From the NCBI GenBank assembly GCA_039589375.1, contig JBDHHL010000001.1, positions 1 to 39,162 on the forward strand: a stretch of 39,162 nt of DNA, written 5' to 3'. Position numbers and translations under genes: made by a program. Source of the DNA: Gemmatimonadota bacterium. GTDB lineage: Bacteria > Gemmatimonadota > Gemmatimonadetes > Palauibacterales > KS3-K002. Shown here piece after piece: positions 8,192 to 24,637 of the stretch (the first letter of the stretch is position 1; each line of letters starts with the position of its first letter). The notes below the pieces were generated by a model that was not told the DNA's origin, did no database searches, and was given only the letters and a program-made list of their open reading frames with translations.

Positions 8192-9886
8192 CTACGCTTC
8201 AAACTGCTCAATCCGTCGCAGCGCCAACCTCAACGGTAGCAAGGTAGCCGCTACGCAGATTCCCACGGCCGCTACTCCGCTGCCCGCAGCCATCAGCCAC
8301 ACGTCGCCTGAAGGGCTCGTCCCCATTAGCCTGTGGCGGAAGATGCTGAGGACCGGCCACGACTCAAGCACCAAAACGACGCCCAGGAGCGCGATGGCCG
8401 ACATCATGAAGAGAAGTCCGCCCATGCTCGTTGGGATCTGCGCGGTGTTCTCGGTCTCGAACTGTGGAAAGATCGTTCCAAACGCCAGCGCCAGAGCCGC
8501 CAGCGCGAAAGTCACGGCGGTGATGGTGGCCAGCGACAGCACCATCATGATAGGGTTCACTTTGAGGAGCAGATTCGTACCGAGCGTCAGCACGAAAGCC
8601 ATCAACAGCAGTGGAGCCGTCCCGACCCAGTATTTGCTGTAGAGGAGGTCCCGTGCCCGTAGCGGACTGGAACGCAGTAGCCAAAGCGTCGGGCCCTCCA
8701 GGCTCACACCCGGAAGCACGAAACGCGCGGCGACGGCTGACAAGACGAATCCCGCAAGCCCGACGTTGACGAAGGAAATGATGTGTGCGAAGAAGAAGCT
8801 GACGCCCTCGGAGTACAGCGGCAGCGCGCGGATGTTGTAGATATACACGACTACCAGGACGCCCAGAAGAATGAGCTGTGACCATTGCGTGGTGTCACGG
8901 AAGAAGACACGGATGTCCTTCAGCATCAACTCCGTGCGACTACTGCCAAAGCCGCGGAACAGCTTCCGAATCGAGACACCGAACCGCCGCCCCGCTGTGT
9001 GCTTCTGGGCTCCCTCCTGTGACCGCGTGAAGGCGGCCGGATAGTAGCGATGGTGAAACAGCGCGCCCAGGACCACTACCGCTGCCGCGCTGCTCCACAG
9101 CAAGAGCAGCATGAAGGGATCAAAGCCGCCCTGTAACACACCCACGATGGAATCGGAGGCCCATTCGCTCGGCAGCCACGGCGACGTCGGGCCCCGTAGC
9201 ACCGCCATGAAGTCACCGAGGTTACGAAAGCCCTCGGGCCTGGCTAGGCTCTCCGGGCGCAACAGGCGAATCAACAGCACCACCCCGCCGGCAGCGGCGA
9301 CCGTGATGACGCCGAAGATGTCCTTCGCACGGCGCGCCGGAAAGACACTCACCAGCAGAAGCGTCAACGCCGACCCGACTACCGCCGTGATGACGAAGAA
9401 CGGCAGCAGCGCGGCCAAGGACACCCCCAGTAGGCCGAACCAGTGTCCGTACACCGTCCCGTACGCGACCAAGATCGGCACGCACATCAGAGCTACCATC
9501 CAACTGGAGTTTACTACCGTCTCCGTAAGCTTCGTGAGGTATATTTGCTCGCCAGAAGACGGAGCGGAAATGAGCAACTCCAGGTCCTTCGACAGAAAGA
9601 ACGTCGATAGCGCGGTGATGACATTCGAGAGCAGCAAGATGCCAAGGAACGTAAGCAGGATCAGGCCCATCAGCTTGGCCGCCAGCAGGTCCCCGATATC
9701 CTCAACTCCCTGGAAGTAGCGCAAGACCCGGTAGAGGATGCCGTAGGCCGCCAGCCAAAAGACGACCCCTACCGTCGCGACCGTGATCGTCTTGCCGCTG
9801 CCCGAGCCCTGACGACTGACCCTCCTACGCGCCGTGATCCGCTTCGGGCGCAGCATGTCCCAGAAGCTCGCGCTGGGAGTACTCAC
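8192..9886 (-). CDS. Putative ABC transporter permease
   Basis: About 12 hydrophobic segments with an internal two-fold repeat (DLELLISAP / LWLLRSSP); overlaps the ABC ATPase stop by 4 bp. Confidence 0.8.
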   Translation of the reverse strand: MSTPSASFWDMLRPKRITARRRVSRQGSGSGKTITVATVGVVFWLAAYGILYRVLRYFQGVEDIGDLLAAKLMGLILLTFLGILLLSNVITALSTFFLSKDLELLISAPSSGEQIYLTKLTETVVNSSWMVALMCVPILVAYGTVYGHWFGLLGVSLAALLPFFVITAVVGSALTLLLVSVFPARRAKDIFGVITVAAAGGVVLLIRLLRPESLARPEGFRNLGDFMAVLRGPTSPWLPSEWASDSIVGVLQGGFDPFMLLLLWSSAAAVVVLGALFHHRYYPAAFTRSQEGAQKHTAGRRFGVSIRKLFRGFGSSRTELMLKDIRVFFRDTTQWSQLILLGVLVVVYIYNIRALPLYSEGVSFFFAHIISFVNVGLAGFVLSAVAARFVLPGVSLEGPTLWLLRSSPLRARDLLYSKYWVGTAPLLLMAFVLTLGTNLLLKVNPIMMVLSLATITAVTFALAALALAFGTIFPQFETENTAQIPTSMGGLLFMMSAIALLGVVLVLESWPVLSIFRHRLMGTSPSGDVWLMAAGSGVAAVGICVAATLLPLRLALRRIEQFEA

Positions 9887-10641
9887 GAGCCCAGCACCTC
9901 CAGCAACTCCCTCACTTCGTGTCCACCGGTCAGCTTGAGGAAGATCTCCTCCAGATCCGCGCCCCCGCTCTCCACCTGGCGGCGCAGGTCATCCATACTC
10001 CCCTCAGCTCGGATTTCCCCGCCCTGGATGATCGCGATGCGATCGCAGAGCGCCTCCGCAACCTCCAGTGTGTGAGTGGACATCAGGAGTGTGCCACCCT
10101 TGCCGACGAAGCCGCGGAAGATGTCCTTCAGCATCCGCGCTGCTTTCGGATCGAGGCCGACAAGTGGCTCATCGACCACGATCACTTCCGGCCGGTGGAT
10201 GAGGGCTGATGATATGATCAGCTTCTGCTTCATCCCGTGGCTGTAGGCCTCCAACAACTCGTCGCGCCACGCCGAAAGCTCCCACACACTCAGCAATTCA
10301 TCGATTCGCCTGTCGATTTCATTGCCGTTCTGGCCGTAGAGACCGGCGACGAACCTCAGGAACTCTGCGCCGGTCAACTTCTCGTAGACGAACGGCCGGT
10401 CGGGTATGAAGCCAAGCCGGCTCTTCGCCCGCTCGGGGTCTTTCTGAACGTCGAATCCGCCGAGCGTCACGGTACCTGAGGTCGGCTGCAAGATGCCCGC
10501 GATGATGCGCAGCGCCGTCGTCTTCCCCGCGCCATTCGGCCCCAGCAGGCCGTACAGCATGCCCCGGGGCACTGTCAGGCTGAGATCCTTCAACGCGGTG
10601 AAGTTGCCGTAGTTCTTCGTCAGGTTACTGAGTTGAATCAC
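9883..10641 (-). CDS. ABC transporter ATP-binding protein
   Basis: Walker A GPNGAGKT, signature YSHGMKQK, Walker B VVDEP, H-loop STH. GTG start at 10641 after GGAGG. Confidence 0.95.
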   Translation of the reverse strand: MIQLSNLTKNYGNFTALKDLSLTVPRGMLYGLLGPNGAGKTTALRIIAGILQPTSGTVTLGGFDVQKDPERAKSRLGFIPDRPFVYEKLTGAEFLRFVAGLYGQNGNEIDRRIDELLSVWELSAWRDELLEAYSHGMKQKLIISSALIHRPEVIVVDEPLVGLDPKAARMLKDIFRGFVGKGGTLLMSTHTLEVAEALCDRIAIIQGGEIRAEGSMDDLRRQVESGGADLEEIFLKLTGGHEVRELLEVLGS

Positions 10642-12194
10642 CTTTCCTCCACCTCTACGACGTCCAATCGGAGCTGTCCGATCAGGCGGACGAGTTCCAC
10701 CTGTCGGGCCAACCCTCCCACGACAAAGCGAAGGTGCGACGCGTCGGCCGGGAACTGATCCAGCGTCGGGTCCACCGGTACCCAGCCGCCGAGCCATACC
10801 TCTGGCCAGGCGTGGTAGTAGAAGCTGCCGTGCACGTAGACGAGACCCGCAACCGTTCGAGCTGGCAGTCCGACGGCTCGAGCCATGGCCACATAGAGCA
10901 CCGTGTGCTCGTTGCAGTCGCCCCGACGTGAATCCAGCACCTGCCGAGCGCTGGGCACGCTCAGCGTGATCTGTTTGTCCAGGCTCTCGTGGAGCCAGGC
11001 GGTCAGGCGGGCTGCCGCGACTGTGGGGTCCGACGTGCCACCAATCACCTCTGACGCCGCCCTCCCGATCTCCGGGTCATCCGCTTGAATCAGCGGCGTC
11101 GATTTGAGGACGTCGGGCCAGTCGTCCGCGTCAGCCGGAAGCTCGTAGCCTGCCGACTGCGGCGCGGGGTCTCCTGCTACGAAGAGAGTATTCCCGTCGA
11201 GCCGCTGGCGCTCGCCATCCAGATCGAAGCCTGTCAGGTCAACGTCGAGCAGCCGGACGGCCAATCCCGCCAGACGCTCGCCGCGCGGCAGCTGCACACC
11301 CACCGAGATCGCGGATCGCTCGATGATGTCGGGCACACCCAACTCGGTGGACGTGCCCGCACTCTCCAAGGCTCGGTACTCGTTCCAGGCGATCTCGAAG
11401 GCAGTCCGCTCGATGGTGTACCCGAGTGCGCTCGTCGCTCGCACCACCATACCATCCGGGTCCAGCCAGGACTCCAGCTCCACGCCGCTGAAGCTCTGCT
11501 TGACGCGCCACGTCTCCACGGTGTCGTAACGCGCCGGCACCCACTTCTCGATCTGCTCGTCGAAATCGGCGCTGTCGGGAAAGACAAGTGTCTCTTTCGA
11601 CAGCACCTCCATGGTCACGCGCTGCTTCTCCATGATGCTGGGGTCGAAAACCTCGAAGCTGTACACCTCGCCGGGCTGCGGCTCGCCGCCGAGCGCGAAG
11701 TGTACGGGCATGACCTGAGGCAGAAGGATCGGGCCTTCGGTCGGCAAGGCGAGGGTTTGCTGATCGTCTCCCGCCTCGATCTGCAGATCCAGAAGCGAGT
11801 CGCCCTGCATCACACCCTCAACCCTGAAACTCCCGATATCCGAGCGCAAGGCGAAACGGAAGTCGCGCAGTTCGAGGCTCTCCCCCAAGCGAACCTCCGT
11901 TCGGGCCGTCGCCGGCAATTCACTGCCGAATGCCCTGATATGTAGCCGCATGTCGTCATCGAGTACGAAGCCCTCCGGCACGGTGTCGATTCGCGACGCG
12001 GCATACCCGATCGGCGCGCCCCCAAGCTTGATCGAATAGAAAGATGCGCTGGGAATGAGGTTCGCGGATGCCTCGGCCAGACGGACGGTCACCGGCCTGT
12101 AGTACTCTCGGCGCAGATGCCAGGCCAGCACAGCGACCCAGACCGCAAGTACCGCGACGCCGGCCAGGCGCCATCTGCGTCGCAGGCTCACCAC
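10638..12194 (-). CDS. Transglutaminase-like domain protein with N-terminal membrane anchor
   Basis: Catalytic triad motifs GDCNEH, YHAWPEV and VDPT; N-terminal hydrophobic helix. Confidence 0.88.
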   Translation of the reverse strand: MVSLRRRWRLAGVAVLAVWVAVLAWHLRREYYRPVTVRLAEASANLIPSASFYSIKLGGAPIGYAASRIDTVPEGFVLDDDMRLHIRAFGSELPATARTEVRLGESLELRDFRFALRSDIGSFRVEGVMQGDSLLDLQIEAGDDQQTLALPTEGPILLPQVMPVHFALGGEPQPGEVYSFEVFDPSIMEKQRVTMEVLSKETLVFPDSADFDEQIEKWVPARYDTVETWRVKQSFSGVELESWLDPDGMVVRATSALGYTIERTAFEIAWNEYRALESAGTSTELGVPDIIERSAISVGVQLPRGERLAGLAVRLLDVDLTGFDLDGERQRLDGNTLFVAGDPAPQSAGYELPADADDWPDVLKSTPLIQADDPEIGRAASEVIGGTSDPTVAAARLTAWLHESLDKQITLSVPSARQVLDSRRGDCNEHTVLYVAMARAVGLPARTVAGLVYVHGSFYYHAWPEVWLGGWVPVDPTLDQFPADASHLRFVVGGLARQVELVRLIGQLRLDVVEVEER

Positions 12195-17625: not shown

Positions 17626-18378
17626 TCAACCGTCGATCCGCTCTCGGCGCGACACGTTCGACCTGATCACAATCTCCTCCACCGCTACAGAACTCGGCTG
17701 TGCGATTGCGAAGGACACCGCATCCGCGACCGCCTCGGGTGGAAGCATGTCCGCCCGCGACGGAAGATCCTCGCGCGCGTCGGGATCGATGGCATCCCAC
17801 AATGGCGTGTTCACGGCCGACGGCTCGATCCACGTCGACCGCACACCCGTGCCGCGCAGTTCCTCAACCAGCACTTCGTGCAACCCGCGTAACCCGTACT
17901 TGGAAGCCGAATACGCCGCATTGCCCGGAAACGCCTTGCGCCCGGCGATCGAGCCGACGTTCACGATGTGGCCCGACCCGCGCGATAGCATCCCCGGCAG
18001 ACACAGACGCGTTAGCTCGAACGGGCCTCGTAGGTTGACCGCTATTAGACGCTCGAATACAGCAGGGTCGGTCTCGCCGAATGCAGCCAGCGCGAAGGCC
18101 CCCGCGTTATTGATCAGGACATCCGGAGCTTCGCTCCACTCCTCTTCGATTACCGCCGCAAGCCGCTCTTGAAAGGCGGCGTCCGTCAGATCGCCAGCCA
18201 CCGCCGTACCGCCCAGCCTTCCCGCCGCTTCCGCCAGCGGGTCCGCCCGACGCGCGACTAGGATCAGCTTTGCGCCGACGCGAGCCAGGCGATCGGCCAC
18301 TGCCCGCCCGATCCCGCTCGTAGCTCCCGTAATGACAATTCTCTGCCCGGACAGCGGCTCCCGCTCCGTCCTAGTCAC
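17626..18378 (-). CDS. SDR oxidoreductase, sepiapterin-reductase-like
   Basis: [20 protein letters not shown] start overlaps the folE stop (GTGA). The SDR call is firm; the sepiapterin reductase role is inferred from context and recalled similarity. Confidence 0.8.
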
Positions 18379-18950
18379 GAGTGGAGGGCTTGAGAGGCTA
18401 CGAGCCGCAAGAACTCTTCCCGGGTTCGCAGATCCTCCTTGAAGACGCCCCGGACCGCGCTGGTGATCGTCTTCGAGCTCTGCTTCTCGACCCCGCGCAT
18501 CATCATGCACAAGTGCATCGCTTCGATGACCACACCGACGCCTTTCGGCTCGAGAACGTCTTGGATCGCACACGCCACCTGGTCCGTCAGACGCTCCTGA
18601 ACCTGGAGACGGCGCGCGAACACCTCCACGATTCGCGGCAGTTTACTGAATCCGACGATCCGGCCGTCCGGGATATAAGCGATATGTGCCTTTCCGAAGA
18701 ACGGAAGCAGATGGTGCTCGCACATCGAGTAGATCTCGATGTCCTTCACGATCACCATCTCGTCGTGTTCAGCTTCGAAAACCCCGTTGCCGATGACACC
18801 CTCGACGGTCATTCCGTAGCCGCGTGTGAGCCAGCGCAGAGACTGCCCGACACGCTTAGGAGTATCCGCCAAACCCGAGCGCTCGGGATCCTCGCCCAAC
18901 AGCCGCAGCTGTTCACGGATGTGATACTCGAGACCCGACTTCCCTGTCAT
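18375..18950 (-). CDS. folE: GTP cyclohydrolase I
   Basis: [38 protein letters not shown]. Confidence 0.96.
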
Positions 18951-19012
18951 CTCAGAGACGCTCCGTGATAATCGTTGCACTGCCCCGCCGGCCGGCACCG
19001 TCTTCGTTCAGA

Positions 19013-19426
19013 TCACTCCCCGTAGTACTCGACGAAGTTGCGTTCCGACTCGGAGACCATCACACGCTGTAACATCCCTTCCGGCAGTGCCGCCTCGAGA
19101 CGGCGCCAAACCTCCACCGCAATATTCTCCGCCGTTGGAACGACTCCCTGCATCCACGGGACATCGACGTTCAGATTCGCGTGGTCCACATCCTCGAGGA
19201 CAACCTCCTCGACCAGCCGCTTCAACCGCTTCAAATCGAACACGTAACCCGACTTCGGGTCCACTTCACCTCTCAGCGTCACCTCGAGCCCGTAATTGTG
19301 ACCGTGGCCGCTCGGGTTGTTACACAACCCAAAGACCTCCCGGTTCTCCGCGTCCGAAAGCTCCGGGTTATGTAACCGGTGACCGGCGCTGAAGTGGAGC
19401 CGCCGCGTGACTCTGACGATAGGCAT
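19013..19426 (-). CDS. 6-pyruvoyl-tetrahydropterin synthase family protein (COG0720), PTPS-II-type motif
   Basis: FSAGHRL, CNNPSGHGHNY (Cx5HGH), DH..LN, TAENIA, SE..N. Confidence 0.9.
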   Translation of the reverse strand: MPIVRVTRRLHFSAGHRLHNPELSDAENREVFGLCNNPSGHGHNYGLEVTLRGEVDPKSGYVFDLKRLKRLVEEVVLEDVDHANLNVDVPWMQGVVPTAENIAVEVWRRLEAALPEGMLQRVMVSESERNFVEYYGE

Positions 19427-19835: not shown

Positions 19836-20660
19836 TCAATGCGCCAGAAGCTTCACCGCAATCATGATGAATGCGCCGAAGAAGAACATGAAGGTGTTTG
19901 CGGGACGCCCCTTAGCCTGTCCTTCGGGCAGCAGGTCGGCCGCTCCGACGTACAGGAACGAACCTCCTGCCAAAGCCAGGAGGATGCCGAGCAGACTGTC
20001 CGAGACGTCTCTGAAGGTCAAGTAACTGACAACCACTGCCACCGGCGTAACCAACGCCAGCGCGGTGGTAACCCAGCCTGCCTTCCTGCCGGGCACGCCG
20101 GAGTGATACAACGCGGACATGGCAGCGATTCCCACAGGCATCTTGTGGACAACGACGAGGATAGCCGTGACCGAACCGAGCAGGGCTCCCGCGGCTAGCC
20201 CAGCACCCACCGAAACGCCGTCGACGACCGAGTGGATCCCAAGACCGAGCACGACCACAGGGCCCAGGTTGTGCGGATCATGATCGTGGTCGTGATCGTG
20301 GCCGTCTACGTCGATAGGAGACTCGCCCCGGGCGTGAACGTGAGGGATGAAATGCGCCTCGAGTAGATAGAACGCCAGGAAACTGACCAGCGTCCATGCG
20401 ACGCCGCTGTCGGTGCCGATCAGCTCGACAGAACTGGGAATAAGGTGAAGGAGCGCACCTGACACCAACAGTCCTGCCGCGAAAACGATCAACTCGGCGG
20501 TGTGCTTGATCGCCCACGACTCGAAGCGGCGGATCAACCACACCCCCGACAGCATGCCCAGCCCCGTCAAGGCGGCAAAGAACAAAGCGGTGCTGGGCGC
20601 GGCGGGTACCGCGTCGAGCTGTTGGAGTGCAGGGCTGGCAGACGCCAGAGTGACCGACAT
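19836..20660 (-). CDS. ZIP-family metal transporter
   Basis: FAAGLL....LHLIP, His-rich loop HVHA...HDHDHDHDPH, HSVVDG, HKMPVG, GSFLYVGAADLLPE. Confidence 0.9.
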   Translation of the reverse strand: MSVTLASASPALQQLDAVPAAPSTALFFAALTGLGMLSGVWLIRRFESWAIKHTAELIVFAAGLLVSGALLHLIPSSVELIGTDSGVAWTLVSFLAFYLLEAHFIPHVHARGESPIDVDGHDHDHDHDPHNLGPVVVLGLGIHSVVDGVSVGAGLAAGALLGSVTAILVVVHKMPVGIAAMSALYHSGVPGRKAGWVTTALALVTPVAVVVSYLTFRDVSDSLLGILLALAGGSFLYVGAADLLPEGQAKGRPANTFMFFFGAFIMIAVKLLAH

Positions 20661-20753
20661 GCCACGGAGTCGCTAGAAATGAATGTTACGGCTGGGCTAG
20701 CCTCATCGATGCGCGCAACATAGGCGACGCGACCAGTGGCAGCAACACGGCGC

Positions 20754-20783
20754 TTGACTGTTCCTGGGCGGCCGAGCTAACCT
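20754..20783 (+). promoter_or_regulatory. Putative sigma70 promoter for the RAPP-leader metal uptake operon
   Basis: TTGACT, 18-nt spacer, TAACCT; ends 10 nt before ATG 20794, implying a near-leaderless mRNA. Confidence 0.5.
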
Positions 20784-20793
20784 TCACGCCACC

Positions 20794-21126
20794 ATGCGGA
20801 TGCGAGTATTACTCAAGCGAGCGGTCGCATTTCTGCTGCTTGTCGCTCTCCCGGCGGTAGCCGGCGCTCGTCTGACACTCGACGTTCGCAATCCTCTCCA
20901 CAACATCGGAAGCATCGAAGTCGAGGACTCTGGCAGCGCGGGCCGAGCTCACGATCACAGGCTCTGCGTGCTGGTTTTGCTCACGCCGTGGTCGGCCCCG
21001 GCGCAGGCGCCGCAGGCCGCGGCAGCGGCACGCGCGGCAGAGACCGCTCTTCCCGCAGAAGGCGCCGCGCGAACCAGCGACAGGACCGGGCTCCAGTCGG
21101 CCCGCGCTCCTCCGGCCGTGCTCTAG
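20794..21126 (+). CDS. DUF2946-like leader protein with signal peptide, HDHxxC motif and C-terminal RAPP
   Basis: Basic-hydrophobic N-terminus, HDHRLC at residues 53-58, Ala/Pro-rich linker, ends QSARAPPAVL; first ORF upstream of metal uptake genes. Confidence 0.75.
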   Translation: MRMRVLLKRAVAFLLLVALPAVAGARLTLDVRNPLHNIGSIEVEDSGSAGRAHDHRLCVLVLLTPWSAPAQAPQAAAAARAAETALPAEGAARTSDRTGLQSARAPPAVL

Positions 21127-21211
21127 GCCGGCCCAAGCGGCCGGTTCGTACTCGACTCGCCACTTCCGGGTTGCAGGCACGGACCCGAAGGTCCGATGCC
21201 CTAAGGTGTGC

Positions 21212-22531
21212 ATGATTACTCTATCCGATGTCGGAGCGAGCAAGTTGGCAAAGCGTCTGCTTATCTCCTTGAGCCTTGTGGCGGTGGTGTTTGCCACGAC
21301 ACCAATCGTGGTATCTGCCCAAGAAACGAAGGCGGACTCCTTGGAGGCGCGAATCAGAGAGCTCGAGGCCCGGCTTGACAGTCTGCTGGCCGAATTGGCT
21401 CTCGGGCGCGCCGACAGCGCCGCCAAGGCAGCCGCCGCCGAGCTCGAAGCTCTGCGCGAGGCGGCACGTGCCGCAGCCGGTGAACAAGCGCAAGACACCG
21501 CCGCTACGAGCCGCACCAGCAACATGAATATCCTCAATCCCGAGATCAGCGTAACCGGCGACATACTGGGCACTTACGTCGCTCCCGCCGAGGGTGGCAA
21601 CTACCTGACGGCCGTGCCGAGGGAGTTCGAGTTCGCGTTCCAGGCGGCGCTCGATCCCTACACTCGGACCAAGATATTCGTTGCATACGAAGAGGACTTC
21701 GAGATAGCGGGACTCGGCGCGGGAGAAGGAGAGGAAGAGGACGCGCACCCGGCGGTGGAGATCGAGGAAGGCTACATATACTGGGTCGGGCTGCCGGGCT
21801 TCGGCCTCAAGGCAGGGAAGTTCCGGCATCAAATCGGTCTCTACAACCGCTGGCATACGCACGCACTGCTCGAGGTGGACCGGCCACTGGCGACGGTGGC
21901 GTTTCTAGGCGGAGACGGGCTGATCCAGACAGGCGTCTCGATCGACTTGCCCGTCCTGATGCTCGGTCCCAGCACACAGAGCTTCACCGTCGAGCTCACG
22001 CGCGGCAGCAACCATGCTCTGTTCGAGGGAGGAAAGGAACCGAGCTTCCTGGCCAGTTTCTCCAGCTTCTGGGATCTCAGCGCCGCTAGCTATCTACAGA
22101 TCGGCGTCACCGGAGTATTTGGAGAGAATGACGATCAGGCCCTGAAGTCGCGCTTGTTGGAGATCGATGCCTCGTTCCGCTGGCGGCCGCCGGGAAGAGG
22201 CCTATACAGGGACTTCACGCTCAAGGGCGAATGGTACATCGCGAACAAGGATTTCGGTGACGAGAAGCACACCGGTGACGGGGGTTATCTCCAGGCGAAC
22301 TACCGGCTGAACCGCCGCTGGGTTCTCGGAGCCAGGGCCGACTTTCTCGATGACTACGGGGAGGGGCCGGACATCCTTCAGCTCGTACCCGCCGTCACCT
22401 GGTGGCAGAGCGAGTGGGTACGGCTGAGGTTGCAGTACAACTACGTGAAGCCGGAAGACGGTGGCAGCAACCACACGGTGATCGCCCAGGTCGTGTGGGC
22501 TGTAGGTCCCCACAAGCATGAAACGTACTGA
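21212..22531 (+). CDS. Outer-membrane beta-barrel (porin-like) protein, probable metal uptake
   Basis: Signal peptide (VSAQ), coiled-coil segment, NPEISV.GD, E.E..F...LDPY, LYNRWHTH, alternating beta-strands, C-terminal GPHKHETY. Confidence 0.75.
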   Translation: MITLSDVGASKLAKRLLISLSLVAVVFATTPIVVSAQETKADSLEARIRELEARLDSLLAELALGRADSAAKAAAAELEALREAARAAAGEQAQDTAATSRTSNMNILNPEISVTGDILGTYVAPAEGGNYLTAVPREFEFAFQAALDPYTRTKIFVAYEEDFEIAGLGAGEGEEEDAHPAVEIEEGYIYWVGLPGFGLKAGKFRHQIGLYNRWHTHALLEVDRPLATVAFLGGDGLIQTGVSIDLPVLMLGPSTQSFTVELTRGSNHALFEGGKEPSFLASFSSFWDLSAASYLQIGVTGVFGENDDQALKSRLLEIDASFRWRPPGRGLYRDFTLKGEWYIANKDFGDEKHTGDGGYLQANYRLNRRWVLGARADFLDDYGEGPDILQLVPAVTWWQSEWVRLRLQYNYVKPEDGGSNHTVIAQVVWAVGPHKHETY

Positions 22532-22621
22532 TTGGAACATACCGACACACGCTGGGTGACAGACAGCAGCGAAATGGGGTTCGGGGCGCGGCCGTCGAGG
22601 CCGCGGCAGAAGGAGACGGCA

Positions 22622-23722
22622 ATGCAGTATGGCCCGGTGATTTCGACGCGCCTCCGCGAGGCGCTTCTCGCGGGAGTGGCATTGATTCTCGCGCTGACGC
22701 CGCTATCACCTCGAGCGCTCTCCGCCCAAGAGAAATTGCGCGTGGTGACGACGTTGCCTACGTACGCTGCCATCACCCGGGAACTGACAGCCGACATGGC
22801 GGAGGTAGAAGCCATCGCCCGCGGCGACGAGGATCCGCACTTCGTCAACCCGCGGCCCAGCTTCGCCGCCAAGGTTCAGAAGGCTGACATCTTCGTTGCG
22901 ACCGGGCTTGATCTGGAACTCTGGGTCCCGGCGATACTCGACCGGGCGAGAAACCCGAAGGTCATCGAAGGCGGCTCGGGGAACGTGGTCGCGTACTCGG
23001 GCATCACCTTGCTGGAGGTACCGGAGAACATCTCCCGCGCTGGTGGCGATGTGCACGTTTTCGGGAACCCCCACATCCACACGGATCCGGTCAATGCGGT
23101 CATCATCGCGAGGAACATCCTGGCGACATTGAGGCAGCTCGACCCAGCAAACGCCGCTGCCTATGAGGCGAGAGCCAGGGACTTCGAGGATCGGGTCATG
23201 CGCCGCCTGTTTGGCGATCAACTGGTGGATATGCTCGGATTCGATGCCATCTTCCAGCTCGCCCGCGAACACAAGTTTTGGGATTTCGCGCGAAGCCAGA
23301 ATTACCAGGGGCGACCGCTCACCGACTTCGTCGGCGGGTGGCTAGCCGATGCAGCCCCGTTTCGCGACCGGCGCATCACCTGTTATCACAAGAACTGGGC
23401 CTATTTCAGCTCTCGCTTTCGGGTCGAATGCGCCATCTACGTCGAGCCCCAGCCGGGCATCCCGCCCTCGCCGGGACACCTGCGCAGCGTCGTCGACCTG
23501 ATGCGCGACGAGTTGATCCCGGTCGTCTTCGCCGCGAACTACTTCAGCCACGCTCAAGTAGAGCGCGTCGCTTCGCGCACCAACGCAAAGGCGGTCATCG
23601 TGCCGGAGCACGTTGCCGGAGCCGAAGGTGTGGAAACATACTTTGACCTTGTCGACGCGTGGGTCTCCGGTCTATCAACGGCGTTCCTTGCCCTGGACAG
23701 GAGACGTGACCATCGCGAATAG
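22622..23722 (+). CDS. Metal ABC transporter substrate-binding protein (ZnuA/TroA cluster A-I)
   Basis: VVTT, EDPHF, GLDLE.W, GNPHIH.DP, YH..W.YF, EP.PGIPPSP.HL. AGGAG precedes ATG 22622. Confidence 0.9.
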   Translation: MQYGPVISTRLREALLAGVALILALTPLSPRALSAQEKLRVVTTLPTYAAITRELTADMAEVEAIARGDEDPHFVNPRPSFAAKVQKADIFVATGLDLELWVPAILDRARNPKVIEGGSGNVVAYSGITLLEVPENISRAGGDVHVFGNPHIHTDPVNAVIIARNILATLRQLDPANAAAYEARARDFEDRVMRRLFGDQLVDMLGFDAIFQLAREHKFWDFARSQNYQGRPLTDFVGGWLADAAPFRDRRITCYHKNWAYFSSRFRVECAIYVEPQPGIPPSPGHLRSVVDLMRDELIPVVFAANYFSHAQVERVASRTNAKAVIVPEHVAGAEGVETYFDLVDAWVSGLSTAFLALDRRRDHRE

Positions 23723-23767: not shown

Positions 23768-24637
23768 ATGCTCGAATTGATGCTGCCAGCCCTCGTGGTC
23801 TCTCTGATCCTCGTCGGTATTCATGGCTACCTCGGGATTCATATCATCGCCCGCGGAGTCATTTTCGTCGATCTGGCCCTCGCACAGGTAGCGGCGCTGG
23901 GTTGGGCCGCGGCCGGTCTGGGGCTTGCCGATGGTATCGGCGAGCTATTCGGCATCCCGGCGGCCGAGTCGGGATATGCCATCGGATTGGCAGCCACCCT
24001 GGTCGCGGCGGCCCTGTTCAGCATCTCCCGAATCGAGCATAAGTACCTGCCTCAAGAGGCCATCATCGGCATCGTCTACGTAGTGGCCTCGGCGGGGACG
24101 ATCTTGCTGGCGGCTCAGGCGCCGCGTGGATCGGAGCACGTGGAGGAATTGCTTTCCGGAAGCCTGCTGTGGGTAACCTGGCCCGAGATCATCAAGACGG
24201 GAATCATCTACACCGTCATCGGAGTCGTGCACTGGTTCCTGCGTGGACGGTTCTTCACGATATCGATGAACCCGCAAGAGGCCAAACGGAGGGGTTGGTC
24301 GGTGGCAGGGTGGGATTTCTTGTTCTATGCGCTCTTCGGCGTCGTCGTGACTTCGTCCGTCGCGATAGCAGGCGTTCTGGTCGTTTTCAGCTTCCTGGTC
24401 ATTCCGGCCGTCATCGCGTTTCTCTTCACGGCACAGCCGGGGCGACTGCTGGCGATCGCATGGTCATCGGGTACGGCCGCGACGCTGCTGGGCCTCTACA
24501 CTTCCTACGTGACCGACTTCCCGACGGGCCCAACCGTGGTCTGTGCTTTCGCCCTGGCGCTGGCATTCGCCTTTCTGGTTCGACGCTTGGTCCCTCGCGG
24601 CGCATCCGCGGAGGCAGTTTCTGAAGCCACTGGCTGA
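23768..24637 (+). CDS. Metal ABC transporter permease (ZnuB/ABC-3 family)
   Basis: GIHII.RGVIFVDLALAQ, L.GS.LWV, GV.VVFSFLVIPA, D.PTG. Confidence 0.88.
   Translation: MLELMLPALVVSLILVGIHGYLGIHIIARGVIFVDLALAQVAALGWAAAGLGLADGIGELFGIPAAESGYAIGLAATLVAAALFSISRIEHKYLPQEAIIGIVYVVASAGTILLAAQAPRGSEHVEELLSGSLLWVTWPEIIKTGIIYTVIGVVHWFLRGRFFTISMNPQEAKRRGWSVAGWDFLFYALFGVVVTSSVAIAGVLVVFSFLVIPAVIAFLFTAQPGRLLAIAWSSGTAATLLGLYTSYVTDFPTGPTVVCAFALALAFAFLVRRLVPRGASAEAVSEATG

Follow-up and report, generated by a model that had tools for sequence, protein, structure and literature searches.

What does a bacterium gain from a small open reading frame (ORF) that heads a metal uptake operon, begins with an apparent export signal and ends, a few codons ahead of its stop, in Arg-Ala-Pro-Pro (RAPP)? 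The question is raised by a locus in the window analysed here, the whole stretch of 39,162 nucleotides (nt) from a member of the phylum Gemmatimonadota (contig JBDHHL010000001.1). There a 110-codon ORF, termed the leader in what follows, lies directly upstream of genes for a porin-like barrel, a ZnuA-family substrate-binding protein (SBP) and a permease. From its layout, its conservation and its relatives, we consider it reasonably probable that the leader is a regulatory, metal-sensing arrest peptide of the kind represented by CruR and CutF, with zinc as the most likely metal. The parts of the leader on which the argument depends are as follows.

20794 to 21126, + strand: leader ORF, 110 amino acids (aa), a candidate metal-sensing arrest peptide resembling CruR and CutF.
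20794 to 20868, + strand: N-terminal export signal or membrane helix, residues 1-25, with a basic n-region, a hydrophobic core and AGA, as read by eye.
20911 to 20994, + strand: sensor region, residues 40-67, which contains the motif HDHRLC.
20968 to 21102, + strand: spacer of 45 residues (59-103), fixed in length and variable in sequence, C-rich and G-poor.
21103 to 21114, + strand: putative RAPP arrest motif, in which R, P and P are invariant.
21115 to 21126, + strand: three-residue tail AVL and TAG stop codon, the tail length being that of CruR.

The translation begins MRMRVLLKRAVAFLLLVALPAVAGA... and closes with AVL, after which the TAG codon occupies 21124-21126. The motif HDHRLC corresponds to residues 53-58 (nt 20950-20967) and RAPP to residues 104-107 (nt 21103-21114), three codons ahead of the stop, and 45 residues lie between C58 and R104. 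On rereading the sequence, the length of the ORF and the position of both motifs were found as an earlier inspection of the window without database searches (the sequence-only reading) had given them. Scans of the leader against Pfam and NCBIfam returned no match at E ≤ 1. In an AlphaFold2 model, residues 2-32 form a confident helix (pLDDT 93-98), a short helix spans residues 55-63 and the rest is coil (pTM 0.39); the model has no folded domain that would present a pre-formed metal site.

The 441-aa protein encoded downstream was used as a query on 41 related genomes and was found in 26 of them. An ORF ending in R-[A/S/G]-P-P precedes the porin-like gene in all 26 loci with upstream sequence, the window included, and its metal-ligand motif is H-[D/H/N]-H-x-x-C in 25 of these and CxxC in one (L028). 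Every one of the 25 HxHxxC orthologues starts with ATG; 16 are exactly 110 aa long, and 20 end in a tail of three residues. The distance from Cys to Arg is 45 residues in 21 orthologues, 44 in three and 46 in one, so that all 25 fall within one residue of the commonest value, and the arrest motif reads RAPP in 11, RSPP in eight and RGPP in six. Six residues (H53, H55, C58, R104, P106 and P107) are invariant in the alignment of the 25 sequences. Their codons nevertheless vary, with all four used for Pro, CGC, CGT, CGG and AGA for Arg, CAC and CAT for His, and TGC and TGT for Cys, which argues that selection acts at the level of the peptide. Pairwise identity averages 47% over the sensor region, rises to 63% at and around the arrest motif and drops to 17% over the spacer, a pattern from which we take the spacer to be a ruler of fixed length and free sequence. 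These comparisons confirm the leader as more than a chance ORF, and they bear out the expectation of the sequence-only reading that the His/Cys motif, RxPP and the distance between them would be kept in orthologous loci.

A search for related loci with the single protein P0092 returned no relative. A profile built from the 25 orthologues was compared with 1.84 billion representative proteins at a cut-off of E ≤ 0.001, and it recovered 279 clusters (50% identity). Motifs were counted in 154 sequences of this wider family, the spacing being scored in 149 and the arrest motif in 150. HxHxxC is present in 146 of the 154 and CxxC in only three; a hybrid motif, HDHxxCxxC, also exists among leaders. 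The spacing is 45 residues in 108 sequences, 46 in 24, 44 in 16 and 48 in one (148 of 149 at 44-46), and the arrest motif is RAPP in 115, RSPP in 29, RGPP in five and RDPP in one. In the source databases these proteins are called nothing more than 'hypothetical protein' and have no precomputed Pfam domain. The Atlas also points to similar unnamed clusters in Deinococcota.

The closest parallel among described systems is CruR (Bp2923) of Bordetella pertussis, a DUF2946 protein of 145 aa in which, according to its description, 45 residues separate CXXC (90-93) from RAPP (139-142) and RAPP lies three residues from the C-terminus (PMC9426467). The same report describes the protein as poorly structured and cruR as heading an uptake system, with a long intergenic region and a rut site in a 'C>G bubble' (PMC9426467). 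Like cruR, the window leader is the first gene of a metal uptake operon, carries an apparent N-terminal export signal (read by eye), has a C-rich, G-poor 3′ part and is followed by a long intergenic region. Its product is likewise predicted to be poorly structured, its metal motif ends in a Cys exactly 45 residues ahead of RAPP, and three residues follow RAPP. Unlike CruR, it bears HDHxxC (core H-x-[H/E/D/C]-x-x-C) in place of CXXC, has 110 rather than 145 aa, scores below the Pfam threshold, belongs to the Gemmatimonadota and is probably read from a leaderless transcript. The cargo differs as well, since a porin, a ZnuA-type SBP and an ABC-3 permease stand beside a ZIP transporter gene where CruR controls a TonB-dependent copper transporter and a PepSY protein.

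Profile comparison links the two kinds of leader. CxxC leaders occur in the same phylum, and three of them exceed the Pfam cut-off for DUF2946. When the HxHxxC family was compared with these DUF2946-like leaders by hhalign, the two aligned over columns 4-61 with a probability of 95.7% (E 8.4e-9), the HD of one matching that of the other and C58 falling on the leading Cys of CxxC. Among 139 members of the HxHxxC family, 16 match DUF2946 itself at E ≤ 1 (best 0.032); it is the sole recurring Pfam family, and the sub-threshold matches are colinear up to the end of the profile. The second-position variants of the arrest motif (A, S, G and D) coincide with the set described as arresting strongly (RAPP and RGPP) or partly permissive (RSPP and RDPP) in a study of RxPP arrest (PMC12992588). 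We conclude that the leader family forms a divergent group within the CruR/CutF-like leaders that lies beyond the limits now set by Pfam, and in which a His/Cys site replaces CxxC. Spacing within one or two residues of 45, tail length, RxPP variants and profile homology all agree with the CruR/CutF-type architecture that the sequence-only reading had proposed.

Other arrest peptides share part of this layout. CutF of Rhodobacter capsulatus also joins a signal peptide, a metal motif and a C-terminal proline stalling motif ahead of metal genes; unlike the window leader, it has CxxxC and PPP, needs EF-P, is induced by copper and unmasks the ribosome binding site of a detoxifying oxidase. A set of 5,334 CutF-like proteins has been sorted into clusters with Cys, His or mixed motifs, with OEP, CusA/CzcA and TonB-like genes among the neighbours; not all are described as copper-specific, and nickel or cobalt has been proposed for the His-only clusters (Ozturk et al. 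2023, PMC9973294). Neighbours of the OEP, CusA/CzcA and TonB types also occur beside leaders in other genomes examined here. Like ApdA, ApdP, SecM (RAGP) and a Streptomyces set, the window leader is a small protein with a putative localization signal and R-[A/G/S]-P-P near its C-terminus, and its gene is followed by another in the same orientation. The function of those peptides is to monitor export of proteins (Sec/YidC), whereas the window leader keeps its conserved motif of metal ligands at a set spacing and stands ahead of genes for metal transport.

The genes on which such a leader would act, and the divergent neighbour, are the following.

21245 to 22531, + strand: porin-like outer-membrane barrel with an N-terminal signal and a coiled coil (AlphaFold2 and Foldseek).
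22532 to 23722, + strand: ZnuA-family SBP (PF01297, E 1.3e-43).
23768 to 24637, + strand: ABC-3 family metal permease (PF00950, E 6.7e-31).
19836 to 20660, - strand: divergent ZIP (ZupT-like) transporter with an HDHDHDHD loop (PF02535).

The order, with ZIP on the opposite strand and then leader, barrel, SBP and permease, is kept in relatives. The ZIP gene adjoins the leader in 21 of the 26 loci and in 24 of the 68 leader-bearing loci of the wider survey described below. The sequence-only reading had named a barrel, an SBP and a permease downstream, and the matches to PF01297 and PF00950, together with an ORF of 441 aa that belongs to no family, support it. In that longest form the barrel gene starts at GTG 21206. 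Its true start is probably TTG 21245, because GGAG stands ahead of this codon, the closest relative permits no other start and a normal signal peptide results; the SBP similarly probably starts at ATG 22622 rather than TTG 22532, since alignments with relatives begin near the former.

No Pfam family and no PDB sequence matched the barrel protein. Its AlphaFold2 model (pLDDT 66.8) was aligned by Foldseek with OprP (2o4v, TM score 0.51), DcaP (6eus, 0.50) and MOMP (5ldt), and it carries two conserved or invariant His motifs, NRWHTHAL (WHTH) and GPHKHETY. A neighbouring Atlas cluster is automatically named 'Zinc-regulated TonB-dependent outer membrane receptor family protein', which we treat as a lead only. 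This unnamed His-rich porin family travels with ZnuA-type importers and could form a metal-selective channel. The SBP and the permease both exceed the Pfam cut-offs, as is expected of a ZnuABC-type system. The best NCBIfam model for the SBP is AztC (90 bits against a cut-off of 350), its closest solved relative in a PDB comparison is YfeA, and its third ligand position is His in an alignment with 6ru4; the permease is AztB-like and ZnuB-like, below the NCBIfam cut-offs. No cognate ZnuC-type ATPase was found beside the operon or in 80 porin loci (the best 80 of 373), and the best ZnuC-model score in the organism's own genome, which is 87% complete, is 110 bits against a cut-off of 306. The only ATP-binding cassette ATPase in the window is DrrA-like (9886-10797, - strand). 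Beyond the ZIP gene, the translations of ORFs at 18375-19426 (- strand) resemble GTP cyclohydrolase I (CEHH) and QueD/PTPS, which we take to be zinc enzymes.

Two candidates were discarded. The 254-aa ORF at 20809-21573 (- strand) has no family match and overlaps two conserved genes, and it is likely an artefact of high G+C content. The only DUF2946-model match in the organism's own genome (21 bits) was judged spurious, since it runs antisense to a gene of 622 aa and is interrupted by a stop codon.

The distribution of the leader in the phylum bears on what it may sense. Its profile is present in 69 of 401 genomes sampled from the Gemmatimonadota, and in these further loci the leader mostly precedes the porin, down to 32% identity. 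We surveyed the best 80 of 373 porin relatives in the genome collection, all 80 of which are from Gemmatimonadota and 78 of which have upstream sequence. An RxPP leader precedes the porin in 68 of the 78; it is absent from ten, one of which has a masked upstream stretch. Two of the leaderless loci (L116 and L120) share an upstream inverted repeat of the ATCCGA..TCGGAT type, possibly an operator taking the leader's place. SBP and permease genes lie downstream in 61 of the 68 leader-bearing loci. The sensor is HxHxxC in 35 of these leaders, CxxC in nine and another His/Cys motif in 24, with the common core H-x-[H/E/D/C]-x-x-C, in which position -3 is always a metal ligand. Cys lies 42-46 residues before Arg in all 68, and 44-46 in 65. 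Because the motif varies in this way, the HDHxxC of the window is best read as the form that a more general sensor takes in one clade.

The same type of leader also heads other genes. It precedes four TonB-dependent receptors, of which three score best on the ZnuD model and the fourth is tied with a heme-receptor model; the four score 165-328 bits with the ZnuD model against 44-105 bits with a copper-receptor model, all below the cut-offs. It heads, too, one efflux operon (OEP, CusB-type and CusA/CzcA-family genes), where a switch would need the opposite sense. In the five sister loci concerned (L072-L076, from genomes G290, G099, G311, G346 and G150), the leader stands ahead of ZnuD-like receptors and small ORFs that belong to no family or, in one, the efflux operon. 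Of the pure CxxC leaders in the phylum, two stand ahead of receptors without similarity to ZnuD and another ahead of a CzcA-type pump. Leader motif type and cargo type do not correspond one to one.

Elements that might connect a stall on the leader to the expression of the genes behind it were sought around the ORF, and three were noted.

20754 to 20783, + strand: putative leader promoter, TTGACT (20754-20759), 18 nt, TAACCT (20778-20783), proposed from conservation.
21126 to 21146, + strand: HP1, a GC-rich hairpin that begins at the leader stop codon (computed -13.6 kcal/mol).
21180 to 21195, + strand: HP2, a second intergenic hairpin, about 50 nt ahead of the porin start.

The putative promoter ends 10 nt ahead of the leader ATG. 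In 21 of 26 loci, compared with 1 of 2000 shuffles, the leader ATG follows 7-11 nt after the end of an element of the form TTGAC-N16-18-TAnnnT, and because this element ends so near the ATG the leader mRNA is likely to be leaderless or nearly so. Promoter-like elements stand back to back at 20717-20783, TTGACT-18-TAACCT for the leader and TTGCTG-17-TATGTT on the opposite strand for ZIP; by eye, no conserved palindromic operator was seen between or within them. In its SBP, its permease and the nearby ZIP gene, and in the ZnuD-like receptors of sister loci, the system resembles Zur-controlled znuABC and ZnuD. Unlike these, the window operon has no ATPase gene and no such operator visible by eye, and its control would be exerted by a leader peptide, instead of or alongside a repressor.

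The gap between leader and porin is 118 nt in the window, counted to TTG 21245, and 88-134 nt across loci. A hairpin starts between -7 and +12 nt from the leader stop in 20 of 25 loci, 16 of these with a ΔG of -6 or lower, and in 19 of 25 the distance from the end of HP2 to the porin start is 31-54 nt. No U-tract was found after HP1 or HP2. A skew of C over G extends from -165 to +30 nt around the leader stop, and in 60-96% of loci the last 165 nt of the leader are rich in C and poor in G. This skew resembles the rut-bearing bubble of cruR, though Pro/Ala-rich coding could also produce it.

With these features in hand, a model of control can be drawn. The leader would be transcribed from a promoter that leaves almost no 5′ untranslated region, and a ribosome translating it would stall on RAPP while holding Pro106 in its P site and Pro107 in its A site. 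The tunnel of the ribosome holds roughly 30-40 residues, and about 106 will have been made when Pro106 occupies the P site, so that HDHRLC, 45 residues back, would just have left the exit. The same placement of the sensor outside the tunnel was proposed for CruR (PMC9426467), and a CruR toeprint reported arrest with both Pro codons in the P and A sites (PMC12992588), by analogy with which CCT (21109-21111) and CCG are the expected P-site and A-site codons here. Binding of a metal, most likely Zn(II), at HDHRLC would then alter the force on the nascent chain or its folding, and hence the duration of the stall. By analogy with CruR, the stall would persist when the metal is scarce, and the stalled ribosome would shield the C-rich 3′ part of the leader and keep transcription going into the porin, SBP and permease genes. 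Once metal is bound, the stall would be released and premature termination, probably by Rho, would shut the operon. The sequences establish the ORF with its motifs and their fixed geometry, its conservation, its homology to CxxC leaders and its place at the head of metal operons; that the ribosome stalls, which metal is sensed, which way the switch works and that Rho takes part are inferred.

Several observations weigh against this proposal. The window leader does not match DUF2946 (PF11162) at E ≤ 1, it has HxxC (in HDHRLC) where that family has CXXC, and the gathering threshold of 23.7 bits is reached by 0 of 139 family members. The kinship with DUF2946 leaders suspected by the sequence-only reading is therefore upheld by the alignment with CxxC leaders but not by the Pfam threshold. 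A strict consensus scan of 20600-21300 detected neither a promoter nor an intrinsic terminator. Masking of the porin Shine-Dalgarno sequence (GGAG, 21233-21236) by the intergenic hairpins was looked for and not seen, and the stretch 21100-21260 does not fold with significant stability (z -1.18; 23 of 200 shuffled sequences reach the same energy or better). Across loci the intergenic regions have a mean z of -1.05 against -0.13 for coding controls (Mann-Whitney p 0.002, with related sequences that are not independent), so that their structure is only mildly stronger than that of shuffles. As to the metal, all zinc-model scores lie far below the cut-offs, proteins of the ZnuA family also carry manganese or iron, with YfeA the closest solved relative, and CxxC leaders head the same porin-SBP operon in L028, L065 and L067, and in nine of the 68 loci overall. 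An HxHxxC leader, moreover, heads a pump of the CusA/CzcA family whose TM4 motif looks Cus-like; the rule by which this motif presumably assigns metals to resistance-nodulation-division (RND) pumps gave a mixed result for the pumps of sister loci.

Which metal is sensed must then be judged from mixed indications. Those for zinc are the ZnuA, ABC-3 and ZIP families of the neighbouring genes, the AztC-like and ZnuD-like best scores, the His, Asp, Glu and Cys ligands of the sensors and the His at the third ligand position of the SBP, where manganese-specific SBPs generally carry Glu. We give zinc about an even chance, some other divalent metal a distinctly smaller one and copper one that is smaller still. 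The same device might sense copper or another divalent metal (Mn, Fe, Co or Ni) imported by the ZnuA-type system, a reading that is possible but that we regard as unlikely. It draws on the homology of the leader family to copper-sensing CxxC leaders, on the presence of such leaders ahead of the same operon, on the Cus-like pump behind an HxHxxC leader and on the ability of His and Cys to bind copper too; YfeA, moreover, is a protein of Mn, Fe and Zn, and the Ni/Co proposal for His-only CutF-like clusters (PMC9973294) would fit it. It is countered by the lack of a copper-specific gene in the locus and by the third SBP ligand already mentioned. In 17 of 68 leaders residue -3 of the sensor is Asp or Glu, which is unusual for Cu(I), and the receptors behind HxH-type leaders favour the ZnuD model over the copper-receptor model. 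The zinc version with HDHxxC that the sequence-only reading had suggested keeps its His/Cys sensor and its ZnuA-type cargo; the nine CxxC leaders, the 24 with other motifs and the receptor and efflux-pump cargo speak against its simplest form.

The switch may work in either direction, because metal makes the stall of CutF stronger and does not release it, a further point that weighs against the scheme drawn above. In CutF the strengthened stall unmasks a ribosome binding site, and the signal sequence is required (10.1101/2025.02.05.636593). A leader of this CutF or SecM type, in which metal or failed export strengthens the stall and the ribosome melts RNA and acts on initiation at the porin gene, would suit the conserved (predicted) export signal, the conserved hairpin that begins at the stop codon, directly in front of where the ribosome is predicted to stall, and intergenic regions that are more structured than coding controls. 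We nevertheless hold it to be rather improbable, since the hairpins leave the porin Shine-Dalgarno sequence uncovered, HP2 lying well upstream of the start; induction by metal makes little sense in an importer; and the 45-residue spacing, RAPP and the three-residue tail are the geometry of CruR, not that of CutF. The intergenic features and the C-rich, G-poor 3′ part of the leader are further reasons to favour the logic of CruR over that of CutF. Very improbable, in our view, is an ordinary small exported metal-binding protein, for example a periplasmic chaperone for the porin or SBP, whose RAPP would have no regulatory role. An export signal and a His/Cys site are present, and CutF itself was first proposed as a chaperone (PMC9426467), but the leader is predicted to be unstructured beyond its two helices, its spacer keeps length and not sequence, and the invariant R, P and P stand at a set distance from the sensor as well as from the stop. 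Proteomes are, in addition, reported to avoid RAPP-like motifs strongly, save close to the C-terminal end of small leader proteins (PMC12992588).

Returning to a metal-sensing arrest leader of the CruR/CutF kind, we advance its fullest form tentatively, at somewhat short of an even chance. The H-x-[H/E/D/C]-x-x-C peptide, made from a leaderless transcript, would be the first zinc-responsive nascent-peptide switch, in which binding of Zn(II) at the tunnel exit tunes the RAPP stall. It would control the porin/ZnuA/ABC-3 importer, ZnuD-like receptors and the efflux pumps of sister loci at a post-transcriptional level, and ligand swaps would have retuned an ancestral copper sensor to different metals.

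To our knowledge, neither a riboswitch nor a leader is known for zinc. The authors of the CruR study note the absence of riboswitches for copper and zinc (PMC9426467). In the literature on DUF2946 and RAPP, on CruR and CutF and on zinc arrest peptides we found no zinc-sensing bacterial leader, and the word 'zinc' is absent from the main texts of PMC9426467, PMC9973294 and PMC12992588. The main text of PMC9973294 contains no ZnuA, ABC transporters, porins or Gemmatimonadota, although its supplements, or those of PMC9426467, may list such a cluster. The sequence-only reading, which knew of no described zinc version, accordingly agrees with this literature; its novelty is narrowed by the non-copper CutF-like proteins already proposed (PMC9973294). 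For that reason the class of mechanism is best regarded as established, and what is new here is the sensor motif, the cargo and the phylum.

On-ribosome metal-sensing leader peptides were discovered only for copper, in 2022-2023. If the leader does sense zinc, the principle would be extended to a second, tightly buffered metal. The family would then offer a natural series of ligand swaps, with H, E, D or C at one position and CxxC or HxHxxC as the motif, on a fixed 45-residue ruler, useful for studying specificity and the generation of force. The locus also defines an unnamed family of His-rich porins and, if the leader acts as proposed, would show how zinc uptake is controlled in a poorly studied phylum.

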